This document shows, one piece after another, positions 1 to 33,370 of a stretch of DNA of 35,247 nt. Position numbers and translations under genes: made by a program. The notes below the pieces were generated by a model that was not told where the DNA came from, made no database searches, and worked only from the letters and a program-made list of their open reading frames with translations. Source of the stretch: a virus (Duplodnaviria; Caudoviricetes); IMG/VR virus record IMGVR_UViG_3300012921_000008, positions 1 to 35,247 of that record; one strand, 5' to 3'. Every line of letters starts with the position of its first letter. The stretch's first letter is position 1.

Positions 1-1
1 G

Positions 2-136
2 TCGGATGGTGTCGAGTGCCTGGTGTTCGTGCATCGCATCGCGGTCCACAAAGATCAGGACAACACGCAGTTTGAAGAGCAACTGAAAGAGCAGTTGCCA
101 CCCGGCCGGTTTGTGCCGTTGTCAGCCATCCTTTAG
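2..136 (+). CDS. Partial hypothetical protein (3' end only)
   Basis: Open frame SDGVECLVF...PLSAIL ends at TAG 134-136, overlapping the AGGAG ribosome-binding site of the next gene. Confidence 0.55.
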   Translation, partial: SDGVECLVFVHRIAVHKDQDNTQFEEQLKEQLPPGRFVPLSAIL

Positions 137-144
137 GAGTCATC

Positions 145-405
145 ATGTCAGAAGCCACAGCAGAAGCGACGGAAGTGAAATTGATCGACCGCCCCCGCGA
201 CGCGGTGCAAAGCGTCTTGACTAAGCTCATAGGTAGCCCCGTCTGGATCACCCGCGAATGTGCCAGAGATCTGGCTATCCGGGGGATCGGGCGTTACGTG
301 TGCAAGAGCTGCCTGAGTGCTTGTGAGATGGTTCTGATTGATTGCCACGGTCCACACGGCTGGAACATTCGTCGCGTGTACCTGTCAACACCAGCTACTC
401 GCTGA
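145..405 (+). CDS. Hypothetical protein, Cys-rich (CxxC)
   Basis: AGGAG RBS then ATG 145; CKSCLSAC motif. Confidence 0.6.
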   Translation: MSEATAEATEVKLIDRPRDAVQSVLTKLIGSPVWITRECARDLAIRGIGRYVCKSCLSACEMVLIDCHGPHGWNIRRVYLSTPATR

Positions 406-896: not shown

Positions 897-1282
897 CCAA
901 TTTCTACGGCCGAGAGTTCTACGAACAATTGCAGATTGTCCAGGCCACAAACGCGGCACTGGCGAGCGTGCGGGAGGCCTGCACAGTGCTGGGCAATGAA
1001 CCAGACCAGATTCCGAGAATGTATGGTTACCTCGATCTGCTGGCCCAACTGGCCACGGTCGAATTGCAACTGATGACCGGGCTGGAAGTGTCTTCCGAGT
1101 TCTTGCCAGAGCTATCGTTGCCAGGTTCATCGATCGTGTTGCAGGCCGAACTGCAATCCAGGCTGAATCAAGCCGTGGAAATGCTCGGGCGGTTCCGCGA
1201 TGGCGGGATTGTCCTCACCGCCGATCTGGAAGCCTGCCTCGCGGCAGTCACGGCCCCGGTGGGCGTTGAGGTGAGACCATGA
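893..1282 (+). CDS. Hypothetical helical protein
   Basis: ATGA overlap with the csrA stop; GGGAG RBS. Confidence 0.7.
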   Translation: MTNFYGREFYEQLQIVQATNAALASVREACTVLGNEPDQIPRMYGYLDLLAQLATVELQLMTGLEVSSEFLPELSLPGSSIVLQAELQSRLNQAVEMLGRFRDGGIVLTADLEACLAAVTAPVGVEVRP

Positions 1283-2250
1283 CAACCTTGGTGACGAATC
1301 TCGTCAGTCGCTGGAAGCTCGACGAAGCCTCTGGGTCGGCCATTGATGCGCAGGGTCTATACAACGCCACCGCGAATAACGCACCAGGTGCGGCAGCCGG
1401 GAAGCTCAACGGCTGCCGCACATTCAACGGTACCAATCAGCGTTTTTCGGTGGCGGATAACGCCGACCTCGCCGGAGGCAACCGAAACTTCAGCGTGCGT
1501 GCCGTGCTCAATGCCGCTGCCCTGGTGGCCGACATGGTCATCGTCTCAAAGTCGACCAACAGCAGTAACCAGCGAGAATGGCGACTGCTGTTCAACTTCG
1601 CGACGTCTCGATTCCGGTTCGATGTGTCGCCTGATGGCACGTCCGGGGCAATGGTCTCCGTCGATGCCAACGTGCTCGGGGCACCGAGTACGGGCACGTG
1701 GTACATCATCCACGCCTGGCACGATGCTACCAACGACCAGATCGGGATCGCCGTGAATGCGGGCACAGCCACCACGCAGGCTCACGCTGGCGGCGTGTTC
1801 GATGGCTCATCGACGTTCGTCATTGGAGCCTACAACGCGTCGCTCTCTGCCTGGAATGGCTCCATCGACGAAGTGGCGTTCTGGTCGCGCGTGCTGACCA
1901 GCGGCGAGCGAACAGAGGACGTCAACGACATCAATGCGGGGCTTGATCCCTTTGTCGACCCGCCCACGATCACGAGTGGTCTGACGGCAGCAGGCGAAAA
2001 ATGGGTGGCCTTCAACTATCAAATCACCGCCTCGAACGCCCCGACAGCCTATGGAGCGACGGGCCTGCCCGCTGGTCTCTCGATCAATGCAGGGACCGGT
2101 GCCATCGCCGGCACACCGACCGAGACCGGGGAATTCGAGGTCACGCTCTCCGCGACGAACAGCGGAGGGACCGACAGCGAAACCTTGACCCTCACCATCG
2201 CCGCCGCCACTGGTGGCGGTCGTAATCTCACCCTGTTAGGAGTTGGCTGA
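1279..2250 (+). CDS. LamG/concanavalin-like jelly-roll protein with a C-terminal putative Ig (He_PIG-like) domain
   Basis: LVSRWKLDEASG start, WNGSIDEVAFWSRVLT LamG end motif, GLPAGLSINAGTGAIAGTPT Ig motif; ATGA overlap with the previous gene. Confidence 0.85.
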   Translation: MTTLVTNLVSRWKLDEASGSAIDAQGLYNATANNAPGAAAGKLNGCRTFNGTNQRFSVADNADLAGGNRNFSVRAVLNAAALVADMVIVSKSTNSSNQREWRLLFNFATSRFRFDVSPDGTSGAMVSVDANVLGAPSTGTWYIIHAWHDATNDQIGIAVNAGTATTQAHAGGVFDGSSTFVIGAYNASLSAWNGSIDEVAFWSRVLTSGERTEDVNDINAGLDPFVDPPTITSGLTAAGEKWVAFNYQITASNAPTAYGATGLPAGLSINAGTGAIAGTPTETGEFEVTLSATNSGGTDSETLTLTIAAATGGGRNLTLLGVG

Positions 2251-2550
2251 ATGCCTCGTGACAGCACCCCCATTAATGTTTCTGATGCCGGAGACAACAC
2301 CCTCATTGAGGCTGTCGCGGGCCAACCCATCATCGTCCTGGGTTATCGGCTGACCGTCGCGGACGCCGTCGAAGTGGTGTTCAAGTCCGCAGCAACTGAA
2401 CTGGAACCGTTGATACTGGGGACCGGCATTTCCAGTGCCCACGCCGAGCAGGGGTTGTTCGCCACGCAACCAGGTGAAGCGCTGGTGCTCAATCTCTCCG
2501 ACGCAATCGCGGTCAAGGGGGGACTGACCTACCGCGTGGGCAACTACTGA
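2251..2550 (+). CDS. Hypothetical beta-rich protein
   Basis: ATG directly after the LamG stop; alternating hydrophobic pattern. Confidence 0.7.
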   Translation: MPRDSTPINVSDAGDNTLIEAVAGQPIIVLGYRLTVADAVEVVFKSAATELEPLILGTGISSAHAEQGLFATQPGEALVLNLSDAIAVKGGLTYRVGNY

Positions 2551-2673
2551 AACTCTCACCCCGCAGCTCGTGGCTGCGGATAGCGTCGGCTGCCGGACCC
2601 AGGGGAAGCCCCTCATCCGACCCAGGGGAAGGGCAGCCGACGTGAATTCAAACAGTTCCAAGGATTGGACCTG

Positions 2674-3759
2674 ATGCCGAGACTTCGCAACCCTGACCCG
2701 CTGCAAATGACGCTGGCGCTCGACTTCGGCCAGCAGATGGACATCTTCCGCACGATGCGTGTCGGCCCGTTCTCGCATCGCTGGATGATGTTCGTGATCT
2801 GGTCACACCTGGGCCGAGCGCGCTCCACTTGGCGAATGAGCGCGGAAGACTTGGGCGCAGAGATGCAACTACATCCCAGCGCGGCTGTGCGGATCGCGAA
2901 GAAGCTGGACACGCTGGGTGTGCTCCGTCGCTCCGAAGTCGCGAAAGGTTTGTATGACTTTTCGATCTGCTGGGGCGTGCTCTTCGGGCTTCGCGACGAG
3001 GCAGAAAACCTCTGCGCACGCGCAGAGGAAGACTGCGCACGCGCAGAGGAAGACTGCGCACGCGCAGAGGAAGACTGCGCACGCGCAGAGGAAGACTGCG
3101 CACGCGCAGAGGAAGACTGCGCACGCGCAGAGGACACTATTTATAACCATGAACTACCAAGAACCACCATCAACATCCCTGCGCCTGTGCCAGAGGACGA
3201 AGCGATGATGGTGGTGGCAAGACTCGTGGATGCGGGAGTCGGACAAATCGGTTCGACAATCGCCACGGCAGAGGCCCAGGGCATGACCCTGGAACAGATC
3301 GCCGCCGTGATCGAGCATTATCACTCGCACCCCGGGCGCTGGCCCCAAGGCGTGCTCTGCGAGCGCCTGACCAGGCGAGGAGCCCGCATGCTCGATGCGC
3401 ACCAGGGCTGGTACGGCGAGACAGAGCACTGGCAACGAGAGCAAGCCCGCATCGAGCGCGAGGCCCAGGCCCGCGCACAACTCACCCAGGCCGAGGAGAC
3501 CGCTATGCCCAAGCTGATCACGTACCCTCAGCAGGATTTTGCCGAGGAAAAGTTTGGACCGCTGCTTGATGAGATGACCTACCCGCAAGTGGCGGACCTG
3601 GTCAGAGATGACCTGTTCGTCGCGAAAATGTGCCTGAAGGGAAATCACCGACAGCCGGGCATGATCCGCGAACGCTGCCTCTCGCGCATGCAGCATCTCG
3701 CTGCCATCGAGCGCGAAAAACAGGAGCGTCAGGTCTCGCTGGCCACCGCCACGGAATGA
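2674..3759 (+). CDS. Putative replication initiator (N-terminal winged HTH, internal iterons)
   Basis: HTH-like MSAEDLGAEMQLHPSAAVRIAKKLDTLGVLRR followed by a tandem 21-bp repeat and an AT-rich patch, as in lambda-O-type genes; AAGGA RBS favours ATG 2674 over TTG 2665. Confidence 0.65.
   Translation: MPRLRNPDPLQMTLALDFGQQMDIFRTMRVGPFSHRWMMFVIWSHLGRARSTWRMSAEDLGAEMQLHPSAAVRIAKKLDTLGVLRRSEVAKGLYDFSICWGVLFGLRDEAENLCARAEEDCARAEEDCARAEEDCARAEEDCARAEEDCARAEDTIYNHELPRTTINIPAPVPEDEAMMVVARLVDAGVGQIGSTIATAEAQGMTLEQIAAVIEHYHSHPGRWPQGVLCERLTRRGARMLDAHQGWYGETEHWQREQARIEREAQARAQLTQAEETAMPKLITYPQQDFAEEKFGPLLDEMTYPQVADLVRDDLFVAKMCLKGNHRQPGMIRERCLSRMQHLAAIEREKQERQVSLATATE
3012..3134. repeat. Six tandem 21-bp repeats CTGCGCACGCGCAGAGGAAGA (last one partial); probable replication iterons
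   Basis: Copies start at 3012, 3033, 3054, 3075, 3096 and 3117; each contains the inverted repeat CTGCGC-AC-GCGCAG. Confidence 0.95.
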
Positions 3760-5912
3760 TCATGCTGCCCGACCTGATCGCCGAACCGCTGCAATTGCCC
3801 GAGCGTTATGAGCCCCTCGACCGGCAACGCTCGCTGCTGGTCGACATCCCCGACGTGCGGCGGTGTGGGCAGTGCGGTCAGTTGCTCGAACGCAATCCCC
3901 ACCACGCCGCGGCAGTGTGCCTGCGGTGTGATCCCGAATCCCTCTTTGCAAGGAATCATCTCATGTCCGCTGCTGCCGCACGCAAGACTAGATCGAAGCC
4001 AGCGAAACCCGCTCAGCCCATCGACCGCGACGCCGCGTTACGGTCAGCATTGCTGCGGACGGAACTCGACCAGAAGCTGTGGGCGGAACTCAAGCTGACC
4101 CACAACAACGTGCTGGACAGCCAGCAGATTTTGACCGCAGTGAGCGAGACCTGGGCGGGAGATTACAAAGAGCATGGTGAGCATGGCGAAGTCAATTTGC
4201 GCGGCGGGGAAAAGCCCGCGATCTGGTTCGGGCCAAAAGCTGGAAAGCCCGACTTGCAAGACATGGAACTGGTGACCGCCGTGCGTCGCGTGCTAGACAT
4301 CTCAGACAACCTGACGGGCTTGGCCAATGGTCGCGTAAAGGGCAAGAGCGGCAAGTTCAAGGCCCCGGCCGCGACGCCCGCAGATGACCAGGCGAGGGAA
4401 GCCCTCGGCAAAATGGTGCTGATCGAAGAACGGGAGATGCGGCTCGAAGAGATCATACCGAGCGCAGAGAACCCCCGCGAAGATTGGGACGAAGCGTTCC
4501 TGCGAACGCTGGGGGAATCGATCCGCGACCATGGACAGTTCGACCCGGTCATCGTGAGGGAGGATGACGGCCGAGGCTTCCACGAGATCGTCGACGGCGA
4601 AAGCCGCTACCGCGGGGCACAACTGGTCGGGCTGAAGACCTTGACCGCCCGCATCGTGCGTTGCACCGATGCAGACGCCGCGATGGTCCGGGTGTTGTCT
4701 TACCGCCAGCGGCGCGACCTCAACCCGATCGAGGAAGCCCGCGGCCTGAAGTTGCTGCTGCACAAGTACGGTTGCTCGCAGCGGCAGCTTGAAGAACGCG
4801 TCGGCATCAGCCAGGCACAAATCTCCAATCGCGTGCGGCTGCTGAAGATCCCCGAAGCCTGGCAAAAACGCGTGGTGGCAGGCGAGATCAGTGCCAGCGG
4901 TGCCCGCGCGATGGCGGCGTGGGCCGATGTGCCCGAGTTTTGGAAAGAGGCGAACAGCACCTGGTCGAATAAGTTTGCCAAAGAAGAGTTCCTGGACAAC
5001 GTGCCGCGCGGCGTGAACTCGATCCTGCATGAGATCACCGAGCCGCTGAAGGGTTCGCACTACAATCATGCGATCAACAAGAACATCACCTGGGCGATCG
5101 ACCTGGATTCACTGGCACCCGATCAGCAGCAAGCCCTGCGCATTCGAGACATCCCCGACGACGATGGGAAAACCGAGCCACGGGCGTTCAACGTCGGTCT
5201 TGCGAAGCAACTGCAAGCCGCCGCGAAAGCGGCTGTGATGGAGCGTGCGGCGAAGAAGGCCGACAAGCAAGACGAGGCCGCAAAGAAGCTGTCGACAAAG
5301 GAGCAGAAGGCCCGGCAGGAGCAGTTGGAAAAACAGTATCACACCCGGCTGGCCCGATATCTGGTCGGCTGGTACCAGGGCCGCATTGCCGCGATGTTTG
5401 GCGAGTTGACCGACACGCAGTTGATGGACTACACGCTGCACTTCGTCGCGGCCGATGGTCACATCGACCGATTGCGGTCCATCGAGGCAAAGGCCGATGA
5501 GTTCCAGCCCGCTAGCAAGCGCAAAGGGCAGGCATCCACCACGGGCTGGCCGCTCGATGCGTGGCGTAAAATCCCCGAAGACGATCGCCGCGATGCCTGG
5601 GTGGCGATGCTCTGCGAATGGATCTGTTCGACCACCGAAGGCTATCGCCGCATGGTCCGTCCGCAGGATGTGTTGATGGTCGCGAACGACTTCGGTGTGT
5701 CGCTCGATGAATGGACCGTGACGCATGAGTTTCTTGAGCTGCACACGTCCGCTCAGTTGCTCGCGCTGTGTGAGGAGTGGGGGCATTATGCGGGTCCACC
5801 AAAGGAGTGCAGCAAACGCGGGGACATGCTGGCGTGGATCGGGAAGGTCTGCGGCGACAAGCCCGCCCCGAAGGTGCTTCGTGCGTTGAACGTTGCTGGC
5901 CTGCTGAAGTGA
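3756..5912 (+). CDS. Large ParB/RepB/Spo0J-family protein
   Basis: ENPREDWD...LGESIRDHGQFDPVIVR...IVDGESRYRGA ParB-N motifs; LNPIEEARG...SQRQLEERVGISQAQISNRVRLL HTH; ATGA overlap with the rep stop; alternative start ATG 3963 has an AAGGA RBS. Confidence 0.88.
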   Translation: MIMLPDLIAEPLQLPERYEPLDRQRSLLVDIPDVRRCGQCGQLLERNPHHAAAVCLRCDPESLFARNHLMSAAAARKTRSKPAKPAQPIDRDAALRSALLRTELDQKLWAELKLTHNNVLDSQQILTAVSETWAGDYKEHGEHGEVNLRGGEKPAIWFGPKAGKPDLQDMELVTAVRRVLDISDNLTGLANGRVKGKSGKFKAPAATPADDQAREALGKMVLIEEREMRLEEIIPSAENPREDWDEAFLRTLGESIRDHGQFDPVIVREDDGRGFHEIVDGESRYRGAQLVGLKTLTARIVRCTDADAAMVRVLSYRQRRDLNPIEEARGLKLLLHKYGCSQRQLEERVGISQAQISNRVRLLKIPEAWQKRVVAGEISASGARAMAAWADVPEFWKEANSTWSNKFAKEEFLDNVPRGVNSILHEITEPLKGSHYNHAINKNITWAIDLDSLAPDQQQALRIRDIPDDDGKTEPRAFNVGLAKQLQAAAKAAVMERAAKKADKQDEAAKKLSTKEQKARQEQLEKQYHTRLARYLVGWYQGRIAAMFGELTDTQLMDYTLHFVAADGHIDRLRSIEAKADEFQPASKRKGQASTTGWPLDAWRKIPEDDRRDAWVAMLCEWICSTTEGYRRMVRPQDVLMVANDFGVSLDEWTVTHEFLELHTSAQLLALCEEWGHYAGPPKECSKRGDMLAWIGKVCGDKPAPKVLRALNVAGLLK

Positions 5913-5926
5913 TTTCAGTGAAATCA
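5910..5926. promoter_or_regulatory. 17-bp palindrome TGATTTCAGTGAAATCA, parS-like site 1
   Basis: Perfect inverted repeat overlapping the ParB stop codon; near-identical copies at 21288 and 31943. Confidence 0.6.
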
Positions 5927-5937
5927 GGGAGTCCCGC

Positions 5938-6195
5938 ATGCAGCAACAACTGTTCGACCCCGGCCCTGTGATTGAACGTGCTGAATTGGAGCGACGTTGC
6001 ACGCCAGCAAAATCAGGCACTGGGCCTGCGGGCGAAACTTGCCGGACTTGCCGATTCAAGATTCATCGCGATCAGGTGGCAGGACGGTATCTCAAATGCG
6101 CGTTGATGCAGAAGGAATGGAGCCGCGGCGGTGGGACTGATATTCGGGCCGGTTGGTTGGCCTGCCGTTGTTGGCAGCCTGTTGAGAAGGGGTGA
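5938..6195 (+). CDS. Hypothetical Cys-rich protein
   Basis: GGGAG RBS; CRTC...C...ACRCW pattern. Confidence 0.7.
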   Translation: MQQQLFDPGPVIERAELERRCTPAKSGTGPAGETCRTCRFKIHRDQVAGRYLKCALMQKEWSRGGGTDIRAGWLACRCWQPVEKG

Positions 6196-6201
6196 AATCT
6201 G

Positions 6202-6498
6202 ATGAGTTGCCACATAAACGGCAGAGACCTGGCGGCGATCCAGTTCACGCCTGACACCAGCCACGGTCACTTGATCTGGATGCGTGACGTACCGACTGAC
6301 GTTGAGGGCTGCTGCTGCTCGATTCATCTCCTGCCCTGCCGCACGGGCTTCATCGCGGAAATCTGGAATCATCAGCGCGACGAGCCTGGCCTTATGAGTA
6401 ATGCCGCACTGCCAAAGCCACTCACGACGATGCAGCAGGTGCTGGACCTGCTCTCGTTGTGCGGCGTTCCTCAGCCTGCGTTACGAGGTGGATTATGA
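6202..6498 (+). CDS. Hypothetical protein
   Basis: Tightly packed between co-oriented neighbours; ATGA overlap with the next gene. Confidence 0.6.
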   Translation: MSCHINGRDLAAIQFTPDTSHGHLIWMRDVPTDVEGCCCSIHLLPCRTGFIAEIWNHQRDEPGLMSNAALPKPLTTMQQVLDLLSLCGVPQPALRGGL

Positions 6499-7022
6499 CT
6501 TTTGAGGACTACTGTTTAGCGGAATGTTCAGCAAGGTTCACGCAGCCGATCAGCCCTGCACAACGGATCTTTATGGATTCGGTCGCATTGGTGGTCGAGG
6601 GTGGCGGACAGGTGGAAGTGCCCTCACTTCCGCGAGGTTGCGGGACGACAACGATCCTTCAGGCTGCGGCCTGTTTCGCAGTCAAGGTCCACAAGGAGCC
6701 GTTTGTGGTTTTGGTCGGGTCGAACCGGATGTGGAATATCATGCCATCGATGGCGGAACGACTGGGCCTGGGAGGCTCTTCTTACCGTCGCTGTGGTCGC
6801 ACATGCTGGGTCCAACTGAATCATGGAGATCGCTATTCGTCAGTGCTCCTCGTGTGCAGCCAGAAAGATTCCCTGCGCGGCTTAAGCCACAAGATCAACG
6901 GCAGCTATGAGCGTCCGTCCCTTGTGATCGTCGATGGCCATACGCCTTTGTCTGCGCGCGAACGCAAGCATTTCAAGCTGCTCGCGTCCAAGGCGTTTAT
7001 CTCAGACCCCCTGAATGTCTGA
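6495..7022 (+). CDS. Truncated, degenerate paralog of the terminase large-subunit ATPase domain
   Basis: LPRGCGTTTI vs TerL MPRGSGKTSI; FVVLVGS vs YIVLIGA; LRGLSHK...RPSLVIVDG vs LRGLNHR...RPGMVLLDD; GAGGTG RBS. Confidence 0.75.
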   Translation: MTFEDYCLAECSARFTQPISPAQRIFMDSVALVVEGGGQVEVPSLPRGCGTTTILQAAACFAVKVHKEPFVVLVGSNRMWNIMPSMAERLGLGGSSYRRCGRTCWVQLNHGDRYSSVLLVCSQKDSLRGLSHKINGSYERPSLVIVDGHTPLSARERKHFKLLASKAFISDPLNV

Positions 7023-7085
7023 GGCTACTGTGAGTCCAATACCAAGGCGTTACCCGTCGCCGTCCACGGGTGAGGAGTGAGAGCG

Positions 7086-7307
7086 ATGTCGACTGAAGAG
7101 AACGAAGTGTACGAAGCTGATGACCCGATCGCACTGCTCAGGGAGATCATGGACGAGATTGGAAATATCGAATTCAAGGGATCAGAGGACGGTAGCTACC
7201 GCATGGGATTCCTCGAAGGTCGAGCGACGGAGATCACGCGCGGCATGCCGGAGCATCCAGAGTGGTGGAACTATGCGTGTTTTTGCAACGAGTGCCGAGC
7301 CGCCTGA
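7086..7307 (+). CDS. Hypothetical acidic protein with C-terminal CxCxxC
   Basis: GAGGAG RBS before ATG 7086; ACFCNECR. Confidence 0.65.
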   Translation: MSTEENEVYEADDPIALLREIMDEIGNIEFKGSEDGSYRMGFLEGRATEITRGMPEHPEWWNYACFCNECRAA

Positions 7308-7362
7308 TCAGGTAATTAACCATCACCCAGCCAAGGCTGGGTAACTCAACGAGGAATCCACG

Positions 7363-7608
7363 ATGCCGCAGATCATCGTGAAAAGCGGTCCCGTCGCAGT
7401 GAAGATGCCGTGGGTGCGTCGCTGCCACTGCGGGCGAAGGCCAGACATCTCGACGGGATATACCGGGTATGACGTTGGGACTGGTCCGTTCTTGATTAGA
7501 TGCAATTGTGGTCGCGGAGACGACTGGCAGAAATGCACGTTCTCACGGAGTTGGACCAAGACTCGTGCCGTCAGGAACTGGAACCGCATGATTCGCGAAA
7601 ACCCCTAA
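7363..7608 (+). CDS. Lar-like (restriction-alleviation family) zinc-finger protein
   Basis: CHCG...IRCNCG...TKTRAVRNWNR pattern; GAGGA RBS. Confidence 0.5.
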   Translation: MPQIIVKSGPVAVKMPWVRRCHCGRRPDISTGYTGYDVGTGPFLIRCNCGRGDDWQKCTFSRSWTKTRAVRNWNRMIRENP

Positions 7609-7650
7609 CCACACATCACCCGGCCCGGCCGGAACAACGAAAGGGAGAAC

Positions 7651-7989
7651 ATGGAAAACCAGATGATTGTCACAAAGCAGGATCAGATCGAGTTCCTTGA
7701 GTCGATGCGCGAATCTGGCCTGTATCTCCAGTGTTGGAAACTGGACGATGGCGAGGAGCATTCAGTTGCCGCCCGGACAGCGGACGAGGCGTTACGTGAG
7801 GTGGCGAAGCTGGCTGACATGACCCTCAGTCAGTATCTCCGCCACAATGAGGTGAAGCTCTGTGTTCTTGGATACGGCCATCTCCTGACCGTGCGAAACT
7901 CAGACACGGACGTCAGAGAAACCAAGACCGTGGCCGAGTGGCTGGCCGACATCCGCAAAGCCGTAATCATCGCCACGACGGCTTGGTAA
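7651..7989 (+). CDS. Hypothetical protein
   Basis: GGGAG RBS; fills the gap between intergenic motifs. Confidence 0.7.
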   Translation: MENQMIVTKQDQIEFLESMRESGLYLQCWKLDDGEEHSVAARTADEALREVAKLADMTLSQYLRHNEVKLCVLGYGHLLTVRNSDTDVRETKTVAEWLADIRKAVIIATTAW

Positions 7990-8074
7990 CCATCACTCAG
8001 CAGAAACCCCTTACCGTTTTGGTAAAGGGTTTCTGATTCTCCATCCGCAAAACGGTTTACCAAAAAGGTAAGGA

Positions 8075-8095
8075 AAAGGACGGGTAACTATGCCA
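8075..8095 (+). repeat. 21-bp direct repeat AAAGGACGGGTAACTATGCCA, copy 1 (RBS plus start codon)
   Basis: Identical to 8771-8791. Confidence 0.9.
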
Positions 8096-8404
8096 AACCA
8101 CTGGCGACGCTGCTGGGATTGCGAGAATCTGGCAGTCCACGCTGACAACGTCGTGCCTCACGTGCTCTGCACCAAGTGCGGGTCACAAGACACCCGCGCG
8201 CTGAAGCTGAAGCCGTGCCCATTCTGCGGCCAGGCCGCGACGATCCAAAAGGGCGGTGAGCACAACGGCAAGAGTTATTTTTCGGTCGGGTGTGCCGACT
8301 ACAAATGCCGCGGGTGCCACGGGACATGCGCGGCCCCGGAAGAAAAGATGCGTGAAGAAATCTCGGCATGGAACAAACGGGCAAAGGATACTGTGAGTGC
8401 GTAA
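8090..8404 (+). CDS. Lar-family restriction-alleviation-like protein with an extra N-terminal zinc finger
   Basis: LKPCPFCG...YFSVGC...C...EEISAWNKRA, preceded by CWDC...CTKCG. Confidence 0.7.
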   Translation: MPNHWRRCWDCENLAVHADNVVPHVLCTKCGSQDTRALKLKPCPFCGQAATIQKGGEHNGKSYFSVGCADYKCRGCHGTCAAPEEKMREEISAWNKRAKDTVSA

Positions 8405-8783
8405 CATCTCGTGTGCCCTGACGCCTCAGCAGATTCGCAACCGCACCAAGACTGTGACGCGCCGACTTGGTTGGAAGCATGCGAAGCCCGGCGAACTGCT
8501 GTGCATCTGCGAAAAGTGCATGGGCCGCAAGCCGGGTGAACCGCTGGTGAGGCTTGCGATTGTGCGAGTGATCCATGTCCGCCGCGAACCGCTGAATCTG
8601 ATGTCCCTGGCGGAACTGTACGGTGACATTGAAGCGATCCATGAAGGCTTTCCTGACCTAAGTGGCTATGAGTTCGTGAAGATGTTCCAGCAGCACATGG
8701 GCTGCCGTGACTCTGACGAGGTGACACGCATCGAGTTTCGTTATTTGCCTGGAGGAAAGTTTCAGCAAAGAAAGGACGGGTAA
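8397..8783 (+). CDS. ASCH/PUA-like domain protein
   Basis: QIRNRTKTVTRRLGW...KPGE...VRREPL...EGF...EFVKMF...VTRIEFRY pattern. Confidence 0.65.
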   Translation: MRNISCALTPQQIRNRTKTVTRRLGWKHAKPGELLCICEKCMGRKPGEPLVRLAIVRVIHVRREPLNLMSLAELYGDIEAIHEGFPDLSGYEFVKMFQQHMGCRDSDEVTRIEFRYLPGGKFQQRKDG

Positions 8784-8791
8784 CTATGCCA
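8771..8791 (+). repeat. 21-bp direct repeat, copy 2
   Basis: Identical to 8075-8095. Confidence 0.9.
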
Positions 8792-9046
8792 TCGAACCAA
8801 TACACAGATTTTGCATTCCCGGTGCAGCGAGCGATCGAGGAAGACACGCTTGCAAGAGCACTGAGGGCACAACTCGACCTGATGGGCAAGACCGGGGAGA
8901 AGCTCGTCCAGGAGCATCGTGAGCGGGTAGCGGAGGCGCTGCTCACGGCGGGCATCACGCTGATACCGTGCGAGCATCTGCTCGACCATCAATTTGCGGT
9001 CAGCCCCGGCGTGTACGAGGCAGCGAAACGGCAGGTGTCACGATGA
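8786..9046 (+). CDS. Hypothetical protein
   Basis: AAGGA RBS; ATGA overlap with the next gene. Confidence 0.7.
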   Translation: MPSNQYTDFAFPVQRAIEEDTLARALRAQLDLMGKTGEKLVQEHRERVAEALLTAGITLIPCEHLLDHQFAVSPGVYEAAKRQVSR

Positions 9047-9303
9047 GATGCACGATCGTCAAAAGCATCGACGTTGAGGCCGAGGTGGACGTGGACATTG
9101 ACGATCTTTTCGGTGAGCTATTTGACCGCATCGATTCGTCGCTGCCCGAAAGCGTGCGACAACTCCTGCCGTCCTTGGACGTGGCTACCAAGCTCCTGGC
9201 CCGCGTCACAGATGAGCACATCGCCGCAATGCCGCCGAAGGCCAGAGTCGAATTGCTGAAACGTTTGACAGAGCAGGCCAAGCGATACGAGCGAGCACAA
9301 TGA
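9043..9303 (+). CDS. Hypothetical protein
   Basis: ATG 9043 overlaps the previous stop (MRCTIVKSIDVEAEVDV...). Confidence 0.7.
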   Translation: MRCTIVKSIDVEAEVDVDIDDLFGELFDRIDSSLPESVRQLLPSLDVATKLLARVTDEHIAAMPPKARVELLKRLTEQAKRYERAQ

Positions 9304-9518
9304 CAGATCGCGCGAAACTGAGTCGCCTCGGGTGGCTGATGCTGGCAGCAATCCCCGCGCTGCCGTGGGTCCACGCGGCAATCGCGGCACACGGGCCTGC
9401 ATGGATACGCCCCGGGGATTGCACGGTGTCAGCCCTCGATTTGTCGCTGCTGCTGTGCGGGGCCTGGCTGTGCTGTCGCGGCCTGGCGCTGCTGATTGAG
9501 TCTTCTGAAACTCGCTAA
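9300..9518 (+). CDS. Small membrane protein (two hydrophobic segments)
   Basis: ATGA overlap; LGWLMLAAIPALPWV and LSLLLCGAWLCC segments. Confidence 0.55.
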   Translation: MTDRAKLSRLGWLMLAAIPALPWVHAAIAAHGPAWIRPGDCTVSALDLSLLLCGAWLCCRGLALLIESSETR

Positions 9519-9525
9519 CCAACTA

Positions 9526-9963
9526 TCAGCGATCTTTCGCTGTTGTAGACGAGGATCGAAAATGAGGGTTGCCAACCCTCCGCTCTCGACTCCATTTGAG
9601 ATTGGCCTTCAGCCGGTCTCTCAGGGCACCATCCCTAAGGCTTTGCTTCAGAACGTAATCAGAGGCACCCGCCGCGATTGCTTCGACGACCACATCACGA
9701 TCGGAATTTGCCGTCAACATAACAATTGGCACATTCTGCATCTTCGGCACAGACCGGAATTGAGTCAGTGTGTACAGTCCCGTCCAGCCAGGCATCTCCA
9801 TGTCAAGCAACACGCATTCAGGAGTGAAGGCTTTGAGCAATTCGAGCGCTTGCTCGCCAGATTCAGCTTCGATCACCAGGAATTGTTCTCGGAGCGTCAT
9901 CGAGACCAGCCGCCGAAAGCAACGATCGTCATCCACCAGCAGAACGCGGTGTCGTTCGAGCAT
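9526..9963 (-). CDS. Single-domain response regulator (REC/CheY-like)
   Basis: VLLVDDD, VLLDMEMPG (phospho-acceptor Asp), IVMLTA, AGASDYVLK. Confidence 0.88.
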   Translation of the reverse strand: MLERHRVLLVDDDRCFRRLVSMTLREQFLVIEAESGEQALELLKAFTPECVLLDMEMPGWTGLYTLTQFRSVPKMQNVPIVMLTANSDRDVVVEAIAAGASDYVLKQSLRDGALRDRLKANLKWSRERRVGNPHFRSSSTTAKDR

Positions 9964-10146
9964 GTCTGTGAGTTTCTGAGCGAATGTGAGGTAGGGACAG
10001 ATACCGAAGCATATGCGACGAATCCCGTAGTGAGCTGCGGGGATGTTAAAAATCCGTGAGAACAGCAAACGGGAGGAGAGCAGAGACCTTACAGACGACA
10101 GCGGTGGGCACGGTCGTTGCATTGGCGAACGACTGCTAACGGATTG

Positions 10147-10311
10147 TCATTTGCCCTGCTCATGTGAGCGTGCCAGTAACTCCAAGAAGGGCTTCAGCCA
10201 TTGGCTGATCACTTCGTTCACCGGCTGCTGACGGGCTGCTGCGTGCTTCCGCAGGGCGATCTTTTCTGACCGGGTGAGGCGAATGGTCAACGGGTCTTTG
10301 TTCGAGGGCAT
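10147..10311 (-). CDS. Ribbon-helix-helix (CopG/Arc-like) DNA-binding protein
   Basis: 54 aa, PLTIRLTRSEKIALRKHAAARQQPVNEVISQWL; AAGGA RBS on the minus strand. Confidence 0.7.
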   Translation of the reverse strand: MPSNKDPLTIRLTRSEKIALRKHAAARQQPVNEVISQWLKPFLELLARSHEQGK

Positions 10312-10323
10312 GGCAAATCGTCC

Positions 10324-10347
10324 TTGACAAGGTCTGGGTGCATCACC
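10324..10347 (+). promoter_or_regulatory. Putative late promoter/operator, copy 1 (TTGACAAGGTCTGGGTGCATCACC)
   Basis: 20 of 24 bases match 13910-13933; starts with a -35-like TTGACA; lies in the divergent intergenic region. Confidence 0.55.
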
Positions 10348-10442
10348 CCACATAGCCGTTGTCGATCGGCCACCCGCTCCCTGGGTGGTGGCGGGCAGCG
10401 GCAAGGACGCCGCGTGCCCGCTTCTCTTTCTGAAGCGGCGGC

Positions 10443-11234
10443 ATGTTAGCACAACGCAAAAAACCTGCCGAGCCACCAGCGCCTAAAGGTACTTCCCACG
10501 AGTTGAAATCCGATACCTTACGTGGGGAACGGCAGGCGCTACACACTTTCTTGCCGGTGCCCGCGACGCTCACGGTTTCCCGAAATCCTCTGCTCTCGCA
10601 GCATGAAGTGACCAAGGTCGACGTGTCGGAGATCGAAGCGGCCACAGTCTTTACGCGATCGCGGCCGACGAAAAAACGCGAACTCCGCGACTTGCGGCAG
10701 AAACAGAACGCCGCGGCGGCGATCGCCGAATTGACCCGCGACGTCGAAATCTACGGGTTCACGAAAGGCCAGTTCGGTCTGCTGCAACTGACCGAGGCGC
10801 TGCTCGATGTGATCGGCCCGGCCCACGTTTCACTGTCGACCTGGACTGCGGCCCGCCACGAAATCCAGTCGATGGCAAAACTCGTGCAGGCCGGGAAGTT
10901 GACCGGCATGCGATGGCTGATCGATTTCACGTTCTCCCGCCGCGACCCCGAAGCGGCCCACCAGATCCGGCAGACCTTCGGCCTGGACTGCATCCGCGTC
11001 GCGCAGACCCACGCCAAGTTCGCGTTGTTCGAGAACGCGGACTGGCAGGTAGTGTTACGCACGTCGATGAATCTCAACATGAATCCCCGGTTCGAGGATT
11101 TCACCATTGCCCACGACATCGAGTTGGCCGCGTTTCTGCGAGCTCTGCTCGATGACATCTGGACCCGGCAGAAACGGAGCCTTGCCGATGCCGCAGGACG
11201 AGACCAGCGCCAGCACTTCGCTCGCGACCTGTGA
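10443..11234 (+). CDS. Phospholipase-D-like (HxK) domain protein; start uncertain
   Basis: THAKFALF...VLRTSMNLN resembles the HKD/GSxN motif. Confidence 0.65.
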   Translation: MLAQRKKPAEPPAPKGTSHELKSDTLRGERQALHTFLPVPATLTVSRNPLLSQHEVTKVDVSEIEAATVFTRSRPTKKRELRDLRQKQNAAAAIAELTRDVEIYGFTKGQFGLLQLTEALLDVIGPAHVSLSTWTAARHEIQSMAKLVQAGKLTGMRWLIDFTFSRRDPEAAHQIRQTFGLDCIRVAQTHAKFALFENADWQVVLRTSMNLNMNPRFEDFTIAHDIELAAFLRALLDDIWTRQKRSLADAAGRDQRQHFARDL

Positions 11235-11517
11235 CGACGCCACAGCCGTCGAACAGGTCGCCAAGTGGATTCTGACCGGTGCCCGCGATGCCGACGTCCT
11301 GGAAGCGATTGCGGCCACCTGGCCGGAACGGGACGCCCTAGCCCTGGTGATGCAGGCCATCACTCAACTGAAGGCGTCGGCCAACGTCGACCGTGACACG
11401 GTGCGGGGTTTCGTGTTTGAGGCCCGGAAAGACCTGTACCGGCAGATGCGGGAGATCGGCGATTTCGCGGGAGCACTGCGTGCCCTGAAAGACATCTCAG
11501 CGGACCTGGCTGTATGA
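11188..11517 (+). CDS. Putative terminase small subunit
   Basis: Helical 109-aa ORF with GGAG RBS, ATGA-coupled to TerL; call is positional. Confidence 0.5.
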   Translation: MPQDETSASTSLATCDDATAVEQVAKWILTGARDADVLEAIAATWPERDALALVMQAITQLKASANVDRDTVRGFVFEARKDLYRQMREIGDFAGALRALKDISADLAV

Positions 11518-13619
11518 GTTTCTTCGCCAAGGACGGTCAGGCGGGCACGGCAGCCCCCGATGATCAATACGCAGGCCAGGGTGGCAAGCGTGCCCGTGAA
11601 GCCCAGCGGCAGCGCGAGAAGTCGGTGAACGCTCGGGACATCGCGGCCGACTTTCCCGAAGTGCAGGATGCCGAACGCCGCGCGAAGGCCAAGGCCTCGC
11701 TGCAATTCTTTTGCGACAACTACGGCAAGACTACATTTGCGCTGCCCTGGTCGGCGGATCACCTGGACGTGATTCGGGCCATCGAAGCGGCGGTGACGTC
11801 TGGCGGCCAAATCGCACTGGCGATGCCCCGTGGGTCGGGTAAGACCTCGATCGTGTTGTGGGCCTGCATCTGGGCCATCCTCAACGGCCTGCAACGCTAC
11901 ATCGTCCTGATTGGTGCCACGCAGGAGGCGGCGAAGGCACTCCTGCAATCGATCAAGGATGAGCTTGAAACGAACGAAATGCTGTTAGCGGACTATCCCG
12001 AGGTCTGCTACCCGATCGTGCGTTTAGAGGGCATCACCCAGCGGCGGCTGTTGTTCAACGGCTCGCCGATCAAGATGACCTTCACCAAGACGAAGATCGT
12101 CCTGCCGAATGTCCCCGGCAGTGAGACGTCGGGCTCGGTGATCGGTGTCGCGGGTCTGACGGGAGCACTCCGCGGACTGAATCATCGGTTGCCCAACGGC
12201 GAACGCATCCGACCAGGCATGGTGCTCCTGGATGACCCGCAGACCGACGACTCGGCCACCAGTCCCGCCCAATGCGATAAGCGTGAACGCCTGGTGGCCG
12301 GGGCGGTGCTCGGCCTGGCCGGGCCGGGGCTGCGGATCGCCGCCGTGATGGCCTGCACCGTGATCGCCCCCAACGATCTCTCCGAGCGGTTCCTGGATCA
12401 TGACAAGCATCCCGAGTGGCACGGTCGACGCACGGCGCTGTTGAAGAAGTTTCCGAAGCTGGAAGGGGTGCAACTCGAAACGATTCTCGAATACGCCGAA
12501 GTCCGTTCCAAAGGTCTCGAAACTGACGACGATGGCGCTGCCGCCAACAAGTTCTATCGATCGCATCGCAAGGTGATCGAAGCGGGGTTTGAGGCCTCAT
12601 GGCCGGCACGGAAGCTGGCCAACGAGGTTTCGGCCATTCAGCACGCGCTGAACCTCTACCTGACCGACAAGTTCGCCTTCTTCGCCGAATACCAGAACGA
12701 CCCCGCTGCCGGTGAGACCGAAGACGGCACGCTGACCCCGACGTTGATCCTGACCCGCACGCATGGGTACGACCGCCGCATGGTGCCCCCGGGGGTGGTC
12801 TGCCTCACGGCCGGCATCGACGTCCAGGGCGAACTGTTGTACTGGGCGGTGGTGGCGTGGGAAGCGAATTTCACCGGGTACGTGATCGATTACGGTTCCT
12901 ACCCCGATCAGAAGCGGCCTTATTTCACCTATGCCGACGCCCGCAAAACGCTCTCCCGCGAATTCAAAGGGGCGAGCATCGAAGCCCGGCTGTATCAGGG
13001 CCTGGTGCAACTCGGCACGCAACTCGTCACGCGCGACTGGCTCAAGCCCGATCGGGAGACACTCCGCATCGAACGGACGTTGGTCGATTCCGGGTATCAG
13101 GCCGAGACGGTGCGAAAGTATGTCGCGGAGTCAGGAAACCTGCGTCCGCATTTGATGCCGTCGAAAGGCTGGGGGAAGCCGATGCGACCGGCGAGCAACA
13201 ACCGCATCGAGCAGGGACCGGGCTGGCAGATTCCCCCCGTGGCTCGCGGCCGCGTGGTCAGGGAGTGCAACTACGAATCGTCGCTGTGGACGACCTTTGT
13301 CCGCAACCGGCTGTTGTCACTGCCTGGTCAACGCGGCTCACTGACGTTTTGGGAAGAGTCTCCCACGCCGCACAAGATGATCGCGGACCATTGCGACGCG
13401 GAAGTGAAAGTCGGGGTGACGATCGACAGCCAGGGCGGTCGGCATGACGTCTACGACCTGAAGCCAGGGCGTCCCGACAACCATCTGTGGGACTGCGTGA
13501 AGATGGCCGCAGTGGCTGCATCGACGACGCGAAAAGTGAAGTTTGAGCTCTCGGATAATCCCCGCGCGAAGAAGCCGCGAAAGCGGGGCACCAAAGTCTA
13601 CGAACTGAAGGAGGACTAA
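11514..13619 (+). CDS. terL: Terminase large subunit (GpA-like C-terminal nuclease)
   Basis: Walker A MPRGSGKTS, Walker B VLLDD, nuclease LTAGIDVQ, LVDSGY and DNHLWDC motifs. Confidence 0.93.
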   Translation: MSFFAKDGQAGTAAPDDQYAGQGGKRAREAQRQREKSVNARDIAADFPEVQDAERRAKAKASLQFFCDNYGKTTFALPWSADHLDVIRAIEAAVTSGGQIALAMPRGSGKTSIVLWACIWAILNGLQRYIVLIGATQEAAKALLQSIKDELETNEMLLADYPEVCYPIVRLEGITQRRLLFNGSPIKMTFTKTKIVLPNVPGSETSGSVIGVAGLTGALRGLNHRLPNGERIRPGMVLLDDPQTDDSATSPAQCDKRERLVAGAVLGLAGPGLRIAAVMACTVIAPNDLSERFLDHDKHPEWHGRRTALLKKFPKLEGVQLETILEYAEVRSKGLETDDDGAAANKFYRSHRKVIEAGFEASWPARKLANEVSAIQHALNLYLTDKFAFFAEYQNDPAAGETEDGTLTPTLILTRTHGYDRRMVPPGVVCLTAGIDVQGELLYWAVVAWEANFTGYVIDYGSYPDQKRPYFTYADARKTLSREFKGASIEARLYQGLVQLGTQLVTRDWLKPDRETLRIERTLVDSGYQAETVRKYVAESGNLRPHLMPSKGWGKPMRPASNNRIEQGPGWQIPPVARGRVVRECNYESSLWTTFVRNRLLSLPGQRGSLTFWEESPTPHKMIADHCDAEVKVGVTIDSQGGRHDVYDLKPGRPDNHLWDCVKMAAVAASTTRKVKFELSDNPRAKKPRKRGTKVYELKED

Positions 13620-28568: not shown

Positions 28569-30049
28569 TGCTGAGGCAGGAACCCCACGAACTGACGGCC
28601 AAGTTGCATGAGATTGAGCAGCAACTGATCACGCTCAATCTGGAGAACAAACGCCAGTGGTACGGCCGCGTGGAACAACCGCCTACGCATCCCCCCGACT
28701 GGCTAGGGGGACAATGGAAGGGTGAGCCCTTTGAATGCGGAGCCTGCTACAAGATCCTTGTCAACGATACATTCGACGAGAGCAGCTGTGATTGGTGTGA
28801 GGATCTGAACCGCACTTTCGTCGTGCAATATCTCGGTGGTCTAACTGATTGTGATTTCCTGTCCTGTCCCGAGGCAGTCAGTACCACCGGTGGGGGCAGC
28901 ACAACGGGCGGCGGTAGCACCACGGGGGGTGGCTCATCGACGGGTGGGGGTAGCACCACTGGCGGGGGGAGTTCAACCAGTGGAGGTAGTACGACGGGCG
29001 GCGGATCGACGACCGGGGGCGGCTCCTCGACCAGTGGGGGCAGCACGACCGGGGGTGGCTCGACAGCGAGCGACGATTGTACGGTCATAACGAGTGTACG
29101 TGGCCTCCTAAGATACAGGCCAGACAGTGTTAATGCTCGTGGACGTCTGACTTTCACGATTATACCTCAGGTCGGCAGTTACAATATCCTAAGTTGGGAT
29201 CGCGGCCCAGATGCCACCGGACCAGTGACGTTGCCCTGCTTCCTATACCCGATAGAAGGGTCCGCTGGGGGCGGTTTTGAGTGCTACAACACCAGCAATA
29301 ACCCGGTGTATGTCGCCAAGATCGCCTGCACGACAGGGAATTGCCACACGTCCTCCAGCACGACGGGAGATGGCTCGACATCCAGCACGACCAGTGATGG
29401 CAGTTCTTCGAGTACGACCAGCGACGGCTCCACATCGTCGACCACCAGTGACGGCAGTTCCAGTAGCACGACGGGCGATGGCTCGACCACTGGCGGGGGC
29501 TCAACGACCGGTGGGGGCAGCACCACGGGTGGCGGTTCCACCACTGGCGTGGGTTCCACCACGGGGGGCGGATCGACAACTGGCGGCGGTAGCACCACGG
29601 GGGGCGGCTCAACGACGGGTGGGGGCAGCACGACTGGGGGCGGATCGACAACCGGGGGGGCCTGCGGTGGAACTCAAGAATGGATCGGCGCACCGGGGGC
29701 GCCCAGTCCCACCGGGTATGTCTGGGTGCTGAGCGGTGAAGGCTCAGCCTGCGGAGGGAGTTGTGAAGCAGGTTACGCCTGCCTCAGTCTACGCCCGGAA
29801 GGGTATCCGTCGTCCGCCGGACAAACGGCCATGTCGGAATGTGCCTGCCGTGACGTCGCTGGCGAACTCGGTTGCGAATCACCCACTGGCTGCATCATGG
29901 AATGGGATGCCACCAACGGCAACTGGGTGGTGCAATTCAGCGACTGTGCTTCCGAGGCCCCCGGCTGCACATGTTATTACCCGACGCTGCCGCCGGGGTC
30001 ATATGACGGCGAGCTGCAATTCTTGCCCTGCGTACCGGAGCCCGATTGA
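28568..30049 (+). CDS. Cys-rich putative tail fibre/adhesin with long STTGGG repeat linkers
   Basis: Three Cys-rich modules separated by repeat blocks; TGATG coupling at both ends. Confidence 0.7.
   Translation: MLRQEPHELTAKLHEIEQQLITLNLENKRQWYGRVEQPPTHPPDWLGGQWKGEPFECGACYKILVNDTFDESSCDWCEDLNRTFVVQYLGGLTDCDFLSCPEAVSTTGGGSTTGGGSTTGGGSSTGGGSTTGGGSSTSGGSTTGGGSTTGGGSSTSGGSTTGGGSTASDDCTVITSVRGLLRYRPDSVNARGRLTFTIIPQVGSYNILSWDRGPDATGPVTLPCFLYPIEGSAGGGFECYNTSNNPVYVAKIACTTGNCHTSSSTTGDGSTSSTTSDGSSSSTTSDGSTSSTTSDGSSSSTTGDGSTTGGGSTTGGGSTTGGGSTTGVGSTTGGGSTTGGGSTTGGGSTTGGGSTTGGGSTTGGACGGTQEWIGAPGAPSPTGYVWVLSGEGSACGGSCEAGYACLSLRPEGYPSSAGQTAMSECACRDVAGELGCESPTGCIMEWDATNGNWVVQFSDCASEAPGCTCYYPTLPPGSYDGELQFLPCVPEPD
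28880..29059 (+). repeat. 10 x STTGGG-type hexapeptide repeat with diversified codons
   Basis: 18-nt period with variable synonymous codons. Confidence 0.9.
29348..29662 (+). repeat. 5 x nonapeptide (SSSSTTSDG-type) followed by 10 x STTGGG
   Basis: 27-nt period at 29348-29482, then 18-nt period at 29483-29662. Confidence 0.9.
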
Positions 30050-31371
30050 TGCTCACCATTGGCATGGCCACCTATCGTGATTCCAAAGCTCTGTGGCACA
30101 CGCTACAGATCTTGCAGGCCAACGCGATCGCCGAAGGCGTCCGCGACCAGGTCGAATTCGTGGTGGTCGATAATGACCCAGCGGGGCCGCACGGAAAGAC
30201 CAACGCCAAATACACGCAGAACGTGCGAGGGCGGTATGTCGCGTTGCCCGAACCGATCGGGACCGCTCCGCCGCGGCAACGCGTGTTCGATGAAGCCCGG
30301 GGCGAATGGGTGCTGGTGATCGATGCCCACGTCCACCTGCAGCCGGGCCGCTTGCGGCAACTGGTCGAGTGGACCACGGACAACACCAGCCCGGACCTGT
30401 ACCAGGGCGTGCTGCTCAACTCCGAACAGCGGTATCCCGTGGCCGACTTCGACCGCTACGTGCGTTCGCTGAAACTCGACCCCAAAACCATCAGCGACGC
30501 ACTGCGGACACAGATCCGCCGCGGCTTCGACGCTGACCGGCCTTACATCCAGTGGACCCACTGGGCGGGCCGTTGGGGTGAAGATGGTCTGTTCGGCAAA
30601 GCCGCGGTCAATCCGGCCGCGGTCGATCCGCTGTGTGAACCGTTCCAGATCCCCTATGGCGGGCTCTGGTGCTTCCTGTCAAGGCGGGACGCCTGGCTCG
30701 GCTTTCATCCCGAGTTCCGACAATTCGGGATCGAAGGCTACATCCAAACGAAGTACCGACGGGCCAATCGCGGCGTATGGTGTCTCCCCTGGCTGCGGGG
30801 GACGCACTGGTTTCGAGACAGCAAGGTCTACCAGCCCGAGTTCCCGTTCTCATGGAAACACCGCACGCGGAACTACGTGCTCGCGTGGAAGGACGTGCGG
30901 ATGCGTCCGCTCCACGAAGTCTATCAGCATCACGTGAAACATCCCGGCCGCACGACCGAGGCCCAATGGCAGGCCATCCTGAGTGAACTGGGCATCGATC
31001 CGAAAGAAGCTGAAGCACCAGCCGCTCAGCCGGTAGCGATCACCATCAGCAAAGGACCGGGGACCGAGTTGAAGGCCCTGATTGCGTCACTGGGGATTCA
31101 GCCCAAGCCGCAGTGCGGTTGCAACAAACTAGCTGCGGAGATGAACGCCTGGGGTGTGGCAGGCTGTCGGGCTCGGCATCACGAGATCTGCGGCCGCATC
31201 CAGGACAACGCGGCCGAATGGGGCTGGACCCTGGCACTTTCGGTGCCGAAAGCCGCACTGAAGGCGGTGACGTCCGGCCTGGTGTTCTCCATCAACCCCC
31301 TCGACCCAATTGGCTCCCTTGTGAGCGAGGCCATCCGCCGGGCCGAAACCCAGGAAAGGCAGGCCGCATGA
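30049..31371 (+). CDS. GT-A fold glycosyltransferase (GT2/ppGalNAc-T-like) with a C-terminal Cys-containing domain
   Basis: LTIGMATY, FVVVDND, ARGEWVLVIDAH (DxH), GGL...FGIE...HWFR. Confidence 0.85.
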   Translation: MLTIGMATYRDSKALWHTLQILQANAIAEGVRDQVEFVVVDNDPAGPHGKTNAKYTQNVRGRYVALPEPIGTAPPRQRVFDEARGEWVLVIDAHVHLQPGRLRQLVEWTTDNTSPDLYQGVLLNSEQRYPVADFDRYVRSLKLDPKTISDALRTQIRRGFDADRPYIQWTHWAGRWGEDGLFGKAAVNPAAVDPLCEPFQIPYGGLWCFLSRRDAWLGFHPEFRQFGIEGYIQTKYRRANRGVWCLPWLRGTHWFRDSKVYQPEFPFSWKHRTRNYVLAWKDVRMRPLHEVYQHHVKHPGRTTEAQWQAILSELGIDPKEAEAPAAQPVAITISKGPGTELKALIASLGIQPKPQCGCNKLAAEMNAWGVAGCRARHHEICGRIQDNAAEWGWTLALSVPKAALKAVTSGLVFSINPLDPIGSLVSEAIRRAETQERQAA

Positions 31372-31937
31372 ACCCAGACTACATCGCCGAAATCGAACGG
31401 GGTTACCCGTGGTTCACGTATGCTGCGTTCTATGACTGGCTCGCGGAACGCTGTCGGGACATCGTCGAAGTGGGCTCGTGGAAAGGGTTCTCGACCGCTC
31501 ACCTGGCACGGGCGATCAAACGCCGTCCCGATCGCGGCTGGCTGCATGCCGTCGACGTGTGGCACAACGCAGGAGCCTACTGGGGGGACTTCCAGAAGCG
31601 TTTCCCGGGTGACACCGGCGAACATCTCTACCAGACGTTCCTGACGCACCTGATGGCCTATGACGTGCAGGATGTGGTGATTCCCTACCGCATGCCGAGC
31701 CTGATTGCGGCGACCGTGTTGGCCAATCAGCGCAGACAGTTTGACGCCGTGTTCATCGACGGTGATCACACCTATCCGGCAGTCCGGGCAGACATCCTGA
31801 CCTGGCTGCCGTTGGTGCGAACCGGTGGGATTCTGTCGGGGCATGACTACAACAACCGCCACGTGCGGCGGGCGGTTGACGAGCTGCTCCCCGCCGTGAA
31901 TCAGGCCGAGGGGCATGTCTGGTGGGTGACTGTCTGA
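31368..31937 (+). CDS. Class I SAM-dependent methyltransferase (Methyltransf_24-like)
   Basis: IVEVGSWKGFST, VDVW, FDAVFIDGDHTY, GGILSGHDY. Confidence 0.9.
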   Translation: MNPDYIAEIERGYPWFTYAAFYDWLAERCRDIVEVGSWKGFSTAHLARAIKRRPDRGWLHAVDVWHNAGAYWGDFQKRFPGDTGEHLYQTFLTHLMAYDVQDVVIPYRMPSLIAATVLANQRRQFDAVFIDGDHTYPAVRADILTWLPLVRTGGILSGHDYNNRHVRRAVDELLPAVNQAEGHVWWVTV

Positions 31938-31942
31938 ACCGA

Positions 31943-31959
31943 TGATTTCAGCGAAATCA
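31943..31959. promoter_or_regulatory. parS-like palindrome, site 3 (TGATTTCAGCGAAATCA)
   Basis: 16 of 17 bases match site 1; intergenic, 5 nt after a stop codon. Confidence 0.6.
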
Positions 31960-33365: not shown

Positions 33366-33370
33366 CTCCC

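Follow-up and report, generated by a model that had tools for sequence, protein, structure and literature searches.

Why should a temperate phage that encodes an intact large terminase (TerL) also carry, about 4.5 kb upstream of it and away from the TerS and portal genes, a second and much smaller gene resembling the ATPase core of that enzyme? We examined this question in a 35-kb temperate phage record (the window, that is, the whole stretch of 35,247 nucleotides), in which TerL is accompanied by genes for CsrA, for ParB and for a Lar-like protein, by portal, capsid and tail genes, and by an integrase gene at 33458-34606. The named relatives of the window TerL are almost all from Planctomycetota, from which we infer the host phylum. 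A first-pass annotation had read the ORF at 6495-7022, whose protein is here called P0001, as a catalytically dead copy of the phage's own terminase ATPase, possibly acting as a decoy or as an inhibitor of packaging.

A small ORF encodes a degenerate terminase ATPase core

The features on which the analysis was built are the following:

6485..6490, + strand: Shine-Dalgarno-like GAGGTG, from the sequence
6495..6498, + strand: ATGA start/stop overlap with the upstream ORF 6202-6498, from the sequence
6495..7022, + strand: mini-TerL gene, predicted pseudo-ATPase of 175 aa (P0001), TerL ATPase core
6561..6563, + strand: Q23 at the adenine-binding (Q-motif) position, from alignment
6630..6653, + strand: degenerate Walker A PRGCGTTT (P46-T53), with T51 in place of lysine
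6876..6881, + strand: R128-G129 'RG' motif (R220-G221 in the own TerL), from alignment
6921..6938, + strand: degenerate Walker B LVIVDG (MVLLDD in the own TerL), from alignment
11514..13619, + strand: the phage's intact large terminase, 701 aa, with a gpA-type nuclease (PF20454, phrog_38), from family scans

P0001 matched TerL by BLASTP with an E-value of 3e-7, and a TerL profile scored 41 bits on it against at most 4.8 bits for shuffled sequences. Its structure model was clean and well folded, had terminases as its top fold matches and aligned to residues 115-290 of T4 gp17. The proposed kinship with the TerL ATPase core was thus borne out. P0001 corresponds to residues ~63-283 of the own TerL (encoded at 11700-12236), with a net deletion of ~33 residues ahead of Walker B, and shares the motifs FC..F..P, PRGxG, RG and RPxhhhhD with gpA-type planctomycete-phage TerL. 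No family was found for it in Pfam, PHROGs or NCBIfam. When P0001 was compared by tblastn with 50,697 phage records, the sole match was the TerL of Bacillus phage BalMu-1 (E 0.03), and no T4-like genome was matched among them.

The anatomy described in the first-pass annotation was also recovered: threonine replaces the Walker A lysine, glycine replaces the second Walker B acid, the protein stops after 175 aa without the C-terminal part of the ATPase or the nuclease domain, and the frame is intact behind a ribosome-binding-like site and a coupled start. The Walker A lysine was present in 330 out of 330 sampled TerL domains (partly by construction of the sample), and the acidic pair of Walker B, DG in P0001, was DD in all 330. 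From these replacements, P0001 is predicted to be catalytically dead. Other parts of the core were retained in P0001 and the five short relatives described below, together the six minis. The P-loop arginine R47 is kept in all six, the RG-motif arginine (which we take to correspond to P74-26 R139) in four, and P0001 keeps the GxG loop. The position of Q23, presumably the Q-motif, is occupied by glutamine in five of the six minis and by histidine in 327 out of 330 sampled TerL domains, the own TerL included. The T4 and P74-26 residue equivalences used throughout are our assumption, drawn in part from motif position.

Relatives and selection

Relatives of P0001 were sought in 5.8 billion proteins plus 1.84 billion representatives, and five short ones were found. 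P0003 (175 aa) is 69% identical to P0001 without any indel, while P0123 (275 aa) and P0132 (283 aa) are 33% and 39% identical. P0125 (292 aa) has serine where the Walker A lysine stands, and P0133 (180 aa, on 6 contigs) keeps both Walker motifs. None of P0123, P0132, P0125 and P0133 has a Pfam family. In P0133, a stand-alone piece of the TerL ATPase, GRGKTS and LIDD are intact and the internal deletion is larger; its motifs make it a possible active counterpart resembling T4 vs.8. P0123 bears an acidic C-terminal extension of ~100 aa (L003 6600-6899), also present on P0132, for which no family or fold match was found.

The Lys-to-Thr replacement is common to P0001, P0003, P0123 and P0132. These four proteins all start with MTF, have one extra residue ahead of Walker A and form a single clade (support 100/100) in a tree of 28 rows, from which P0125 and P0133 were omitted as the long branches they formed in a quick tree. 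The Walker B pair varies across the six minis (DG, DG, GE, DE, DN, DD), with DE kept in P0132, and the common lesion is therefore the loss of the lysine. The replacement and the start were unchanged in the three relatives at 33-69% identity, all with intact frames.

We then compared the minis in pairs. P0001 and P0003 differ at 55 out of 175 sites, and their mean BLOSUM62 score is 0.09 where a neutral single-step null gives -0.57 (z 3.1); of the 55 changes, 23 are conservative (p 0.017). P0123 and P0132 differ at 89 out of 274 sites (z 2.8), with 35 of the 89 conservative (p 0.07). The probability of a stop-free frame under neutrality was 0.06 for the first pair and 0.012 for the second; the null is rough, the comparison is at the protein level, and the databases contain open frames only, which biases the intactness test. 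No stops, frameshifts or signs of neutral decay were found in the homologues, and the pattern of substitutions does not suggest a gene in decay.

A relic of a displaced terminase, now in decay, is accordingly an improbable reading. In its favour, mini-TerL genes are rare and patchy and form long branches, the bias towards open frames weakens the intactness argument, and the third-position GC content of the gene (GC3 0.65) is below that of the core genes (0.77-0.80). However, the GC3 is like that of the adjoining accessory genes (0.56-0.72), the start is coupled in both phages that carry the gene, the model is well folded, and start and Lys-to-Thr persist across the divergence given above, with zero indels in 175 aa between P0001 and P0003. 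Altogether, P0001 is very probably a selected pseudo-ATPase derived from TerL. It is an unannotated, Walker-A-dead variant of the vs.8/Ksap-type proteins.

Origin and distribution of the mini-TerL gene

The claim that the gene copies the phage's own terminase did not survive. P0001 is only 24% identical to the own TerL, no closer than to other members of the TerL family; the own TerL ranks 28 out of 120 against P0001 and 92 against P0003; and the two differ at the Q-motif position (Q against H). Recent duplication of the own TerL was rejected, as a clade of P0001, P0003 and the own TerL was excluded by the AU test (p=0.0085), while grouping the four minis with the wider own-TerL clade was compatible with the data (p=0.19). 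By these alignments and trees, the gene diverged long ago from the wider TerL family of planctomycete phages.

The ORF belongs to a same-strand run of small genes, flanked by the replication/ParB genes on one side and the nuclease-TerS-TerL block on the other, a position that suggests 'delayed early' expression. P0123 is encoded at the same relative position in a prophage, G001 (L001/L003), and its gene likewise opens with an ATGA overlap. The TerL proteins of the two phages are 40% identical, and P0001 is the only ORF in window 2550-11500 with a protein match in G001 (L003). The closest TerL relative with available DNA (L019/G002, 57% identity across the whole TerL) runs collinear with the window between CsrA and TerL and lacks a mini-TerL gene there. 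A second TerL-like gene was also absent from 172 TerL-centred loci, 83 of which extend at least 6 kb upstream. Viral scans with P0001, P0133 and P0003 gave no further loci; that with P0125 gave one match (L224), discarded as an unrelated chance match. Scans with P0132 and query A2 returned G001 only, and a scan of genome contigs with A2 found none. Among the matches listed for 401 genomes of the order of G006, all lay in frames of at least 341 aa resembling full TerL, with 29 weaker ones beyond, and P0123 was not recovered in 401 genomes of the class of G005 in a search run without a positive control. From these scans, mini-TerL is an old, rare and patchy accessory gene.

Other features of these phages were recorded on the way. 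The accessory region that holds mini-TerL includes a Lar-family restriction-alleviation gene in the window (8090-8404) and a Mu Gam-like gene in G001 (L003 10791-11435). Upstream, a CsrA-family regulator (555-896) is present too in G001 and L019, and a probable replication protein (2665-3759) has about six tandem CARAEED repeats. An early-region protein with LamG and Ig-like (He_PIG) domains is encoded at window 1279-2250 and L003 1363-2304; the G001 version shares the C-terminal Ig part only (69%) and differs in its N-terminal domain. Just ahead of the packaging module, the minus strand carries at 9526-10476 a moron-like pair, one gene with a response-regulator receiver domain and one small ORF without annotation. 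The stretch 10443-11517 encodes an endonuclease (phrog_16945) and then a TerS candidate of 136 aa (11107-11517), and L019 has both genes conserved (64-66%). Downstream of the tail module, 30046-33267 holds glycosyltransferase, methyltransferase and DNA methylase genes.

At 33324-33367, after the DNA methylase and ahead of the integrase, lies the 3' part of a tRNA-Phe gene that is 86% identical to a tRNA-Phe gene of G005; it was detected by the genome search and not by Rfam, and is a likely attachment core. Because phage-type genes stand on both sides of it, the record may be an excised, permuted form or a tandem-element junction. The window contig and the L003 contig begin at the same base, with the first 123 bases identical and one mismatch in 147 (window 1-147 against L003 1-147): the immunity regions of two divergent prophages have a segment in common, at which the assembly breaks.

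The position and ancestry of the gene also bear on a second explanation, in which the protein would bind TerL, TerS or portal as a regulator of packaging or a dominant-negative subunit, and would either delay packaging of its own phage or block that of a competitor. Terminase motors are described as ring-shaped, with arginines acting in trans (PMC5727402), four of the six minis retain the RG arginine, a satellite-encoded TerL inhibitor, Gpi, has been reported (10.1101/2024.04.22.590561), and the window phage and G001 occur in one assembly (L002, L003). Nevertheless, we consider this explanation unlikely. P0001 is no nearer to its own TerL than to others, and ~33 residues within it, the C-terminal portion of the ATPase and the nuclease/portal-binding domain are missing. 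TerL R257, invariant in the 10 rows compared, is matched by Phe or Leu in the clade of four minis and would be placed like the trans-arginine of D6E, as that residue is described in PMC5727402. In addition, no promoter of its own was found for the gene in a weak scan that performed at chance level, which leaves expression in the lysogen unsupported, and the gene sits within a coupled, apparently lytic operon.

A possible decoy for terminase sensors

The ATPase domain of TerL is reported to be enough by itself to activate EcAvs2, through an interface that a bridging ATP seals (Evans et al. 2026, PMC13601566). As both Avs2 and Avs3 are reported to read TerL through the ATP bound to it (PMC13601566; 10.64898/2026.08.25.746987), a decoy has a structural rationale. 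P0001 would be made before TerL, as suggested by its coupled rightward operon upstream of the packaging module, and might dock in the sensor cavity, given that it covers the part of the TerL ATPase contacted by Avs2. Lacking the lysine by which this ATP is held, and predicted to be unable to hydrolyse it, P0001 would not supply the terminase-bound ATP that bridges the interface, and oligomerisation would not be driven. Avs2/Avs3-type receptors would in this way be occupied without being switched on. We give this reading, a non-activating decoy for ATP-bridged terminase sensors, a probability of roughly 0.3.

The terminase residues listed as contacting Avs2 or its ATP in the Avs2-trypsin preprint (Q138-S276; 10.64898/2026.08.25.746987) all fall inside the T4 gp17 segment 115-290 if, as we assume, their numbering is that of T4. 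The P0001 equivalents of R162, R245 and Q143 are kept and those of K166 and E256 are lost. The adjoining counter-defence-type genes, Lar-family in the window and Mu Gam-like in G001, also speak for a decoy, as does the presence of Avs2-like genes in the host phylum: they were found in 7 out of 301 genomes, one of them above the cut-off and homologous to the solved EcAvs2. Several observations count against it. With these numbers, and Avs3a-like genes in 2 out of 301, terminase sensors are rare in the sampled phylum. The arginines that are retained, and the segment that is covered, also belong to the conserved core of the fold in any case. Loss of Walker B is not common to the minis (DE in P0132), and P0133 keeps both motifs. 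When co-expressed, vs.8, Ksap1 and Ksap2, the three small phage proteins of this kind published so far, are all reported to activate Avs2 (PMC13601566, PMC11564622). Ksap1/2 are described as doing so mainly through a C-terminal sensor surface (PMC13601566), so loss of ATP binding need not block activation. The same source reports that single EcAvs2 mutations at the bridging ATP leave defence unimpaired while a triple mutation impairs it, and that Upx is mostly still activated by Walker B mutant terminases; recognition by Avs2 is redundant.

These activation data would fit the opposite role, in which the prophage mimic deliberately activates a host terminase sensor and aborts the growth of superinfecting phages, TerL ATPase domains alone, vs.8 and Ksap1/2 being Avs2 activators in the account of PMC13601566. 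We regard this as very improbable; the gene belongs to what appears to be the lytic operon of the phage, and setting off the sensor from there would damage the phage itself.

A stronger competitor is a TerL core exapted for some other accessory role, binding a host protein, nucleotide or DNA, in which the loss of the lysine merely cuts wasteful ATP turnover or detection by Avs. The stand-alone vs.8 and Ksap1/2 are maintained despite triggering Avs2, and another, possibly anti-defence, role is proposed for them in PMC13601566. The retained Q23, R47 and GxG loop of P0001 suggest that a nucleotide pocket may persist. The ATPase domain of P74-26 TerL is described as its main DNA-binding site, and P0001 and P0003 are basic (pI 9.1 and 8.6); in contrast, the same domain in P0123 and P0132 is near neutral (pI 7.1 and 7.6), which argues against general DNA binding. 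Stand-alone proteins of 120-155 aa with this fold also occur among viral models: the BFVD set includes proteins of 121-154 aa with a related fold from Gordonia phage Octobien14, Mycobacterium phage DirkDirk, Vibrio phage JSF10 and Enterobacter phage phiEap-3, and small stand-alone proteins of the TerL-ATPase fold are, on the models, probably a recurring theme. This explanation names no target or mechanism and is, in sum, about as likely as the decoy. Packaging interference, a relic and a deliberate trigger are weaker readings than these two.

Why phages keep stand-alone terminase-ATPase-like proteins is stated as an open question in PMC13601566; the ones tested trigger Avs2, which seems counter-productive for the phage. 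A natural family with the fold and the sensor-contacted arginines and without the ATP-binding lysine offers a ready test of whether a trigger turns into an inhibitor once the ATP bridge is removed. If the decoy reading is true, P0001 would be a PAMP-derived decoy and might broadly inhibit the Avs family that is most widespread; if it is false, an unannotated family of pseudo-enzymes that reuses the fold of the packaging motor still remains. Speculatively, phages could repeatedly derive an ATP-blind decoy by gene duplication from their most-watched protein, a Walker-A-dead core encoded ahead of TerL that plugs Avs2/Avs3-type receptors, and vs.8 and Ksap could be forms of it that certain receptors have come to recognise. 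In the literature searched, mostly outside subscription papers, no inactive terminase paralogue was described as a decoy, and the portions consulted of PMC13581612, 10.1101/2025.06.06.658234, PMC13716836 and 10.1101/2023.04.06.535777 mention no terminase-derived one.

Comparison with known systems

The nearest known counterpart is T4 vs.8. Like P0001, it is a separate accessory protein with homology to the ATPase domain of TerL, encoded by a phage that has a full TerL as well, and the same combination of a small separate TerL-ATPase-fold gene beside full TerL occurs in the window and in G001. However, vs.8 is reported to keep its Walker motifs A and B and to be toxic with EcAvs2 (PMC13601566), whereas P0001 has lost the Walker A lysine and, unlike vs.8, comes from gpA-type planctomycete-phage TerL and finds no tblastn match in T4-like genomes. 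Ksap1 and Ksap2 are demonstrated Avs2 activators (PMC11564622; PMC13601566). No clear TerL sequence homology is reported for them (Bechon et al. 2024, PMC11564622; PMC13601566), while in P0001 this homology is measurable. The authors of PMC13601566 leave open what vs.8 and Ksap1/2 do.

Two further systems resemble the proposed functions. DSAD1 (anti-DSR2, PMC11087589) is a phage protein reported to block competitively, and without activation, a sensor of a structural-protein trigger. Its likeness to the proposed decoy is a functional analogy only: competition has been shown for DSAD1, its sensor is a different one, and the account of DSAD1 consulted does not present it and its trigger as paralogues. 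Similarly, the PLE protein Gpi is a precedent for a protein inhibitor of TerL, encoded by a satellite and not described as a TerL paralogue in the available text of 10.1101/2024.04.22.590561. Finally, the gpA-type TerL of Planctomycetota prophages (PF20454 nuclease, phrog_38) is the source family of P0001, which differs from it by the missing lysine, the altered Walker B, the deletion of ~33 residues, the loss of the C-terminal ATPase part and of the nuclease, and its location outside the packaging module.
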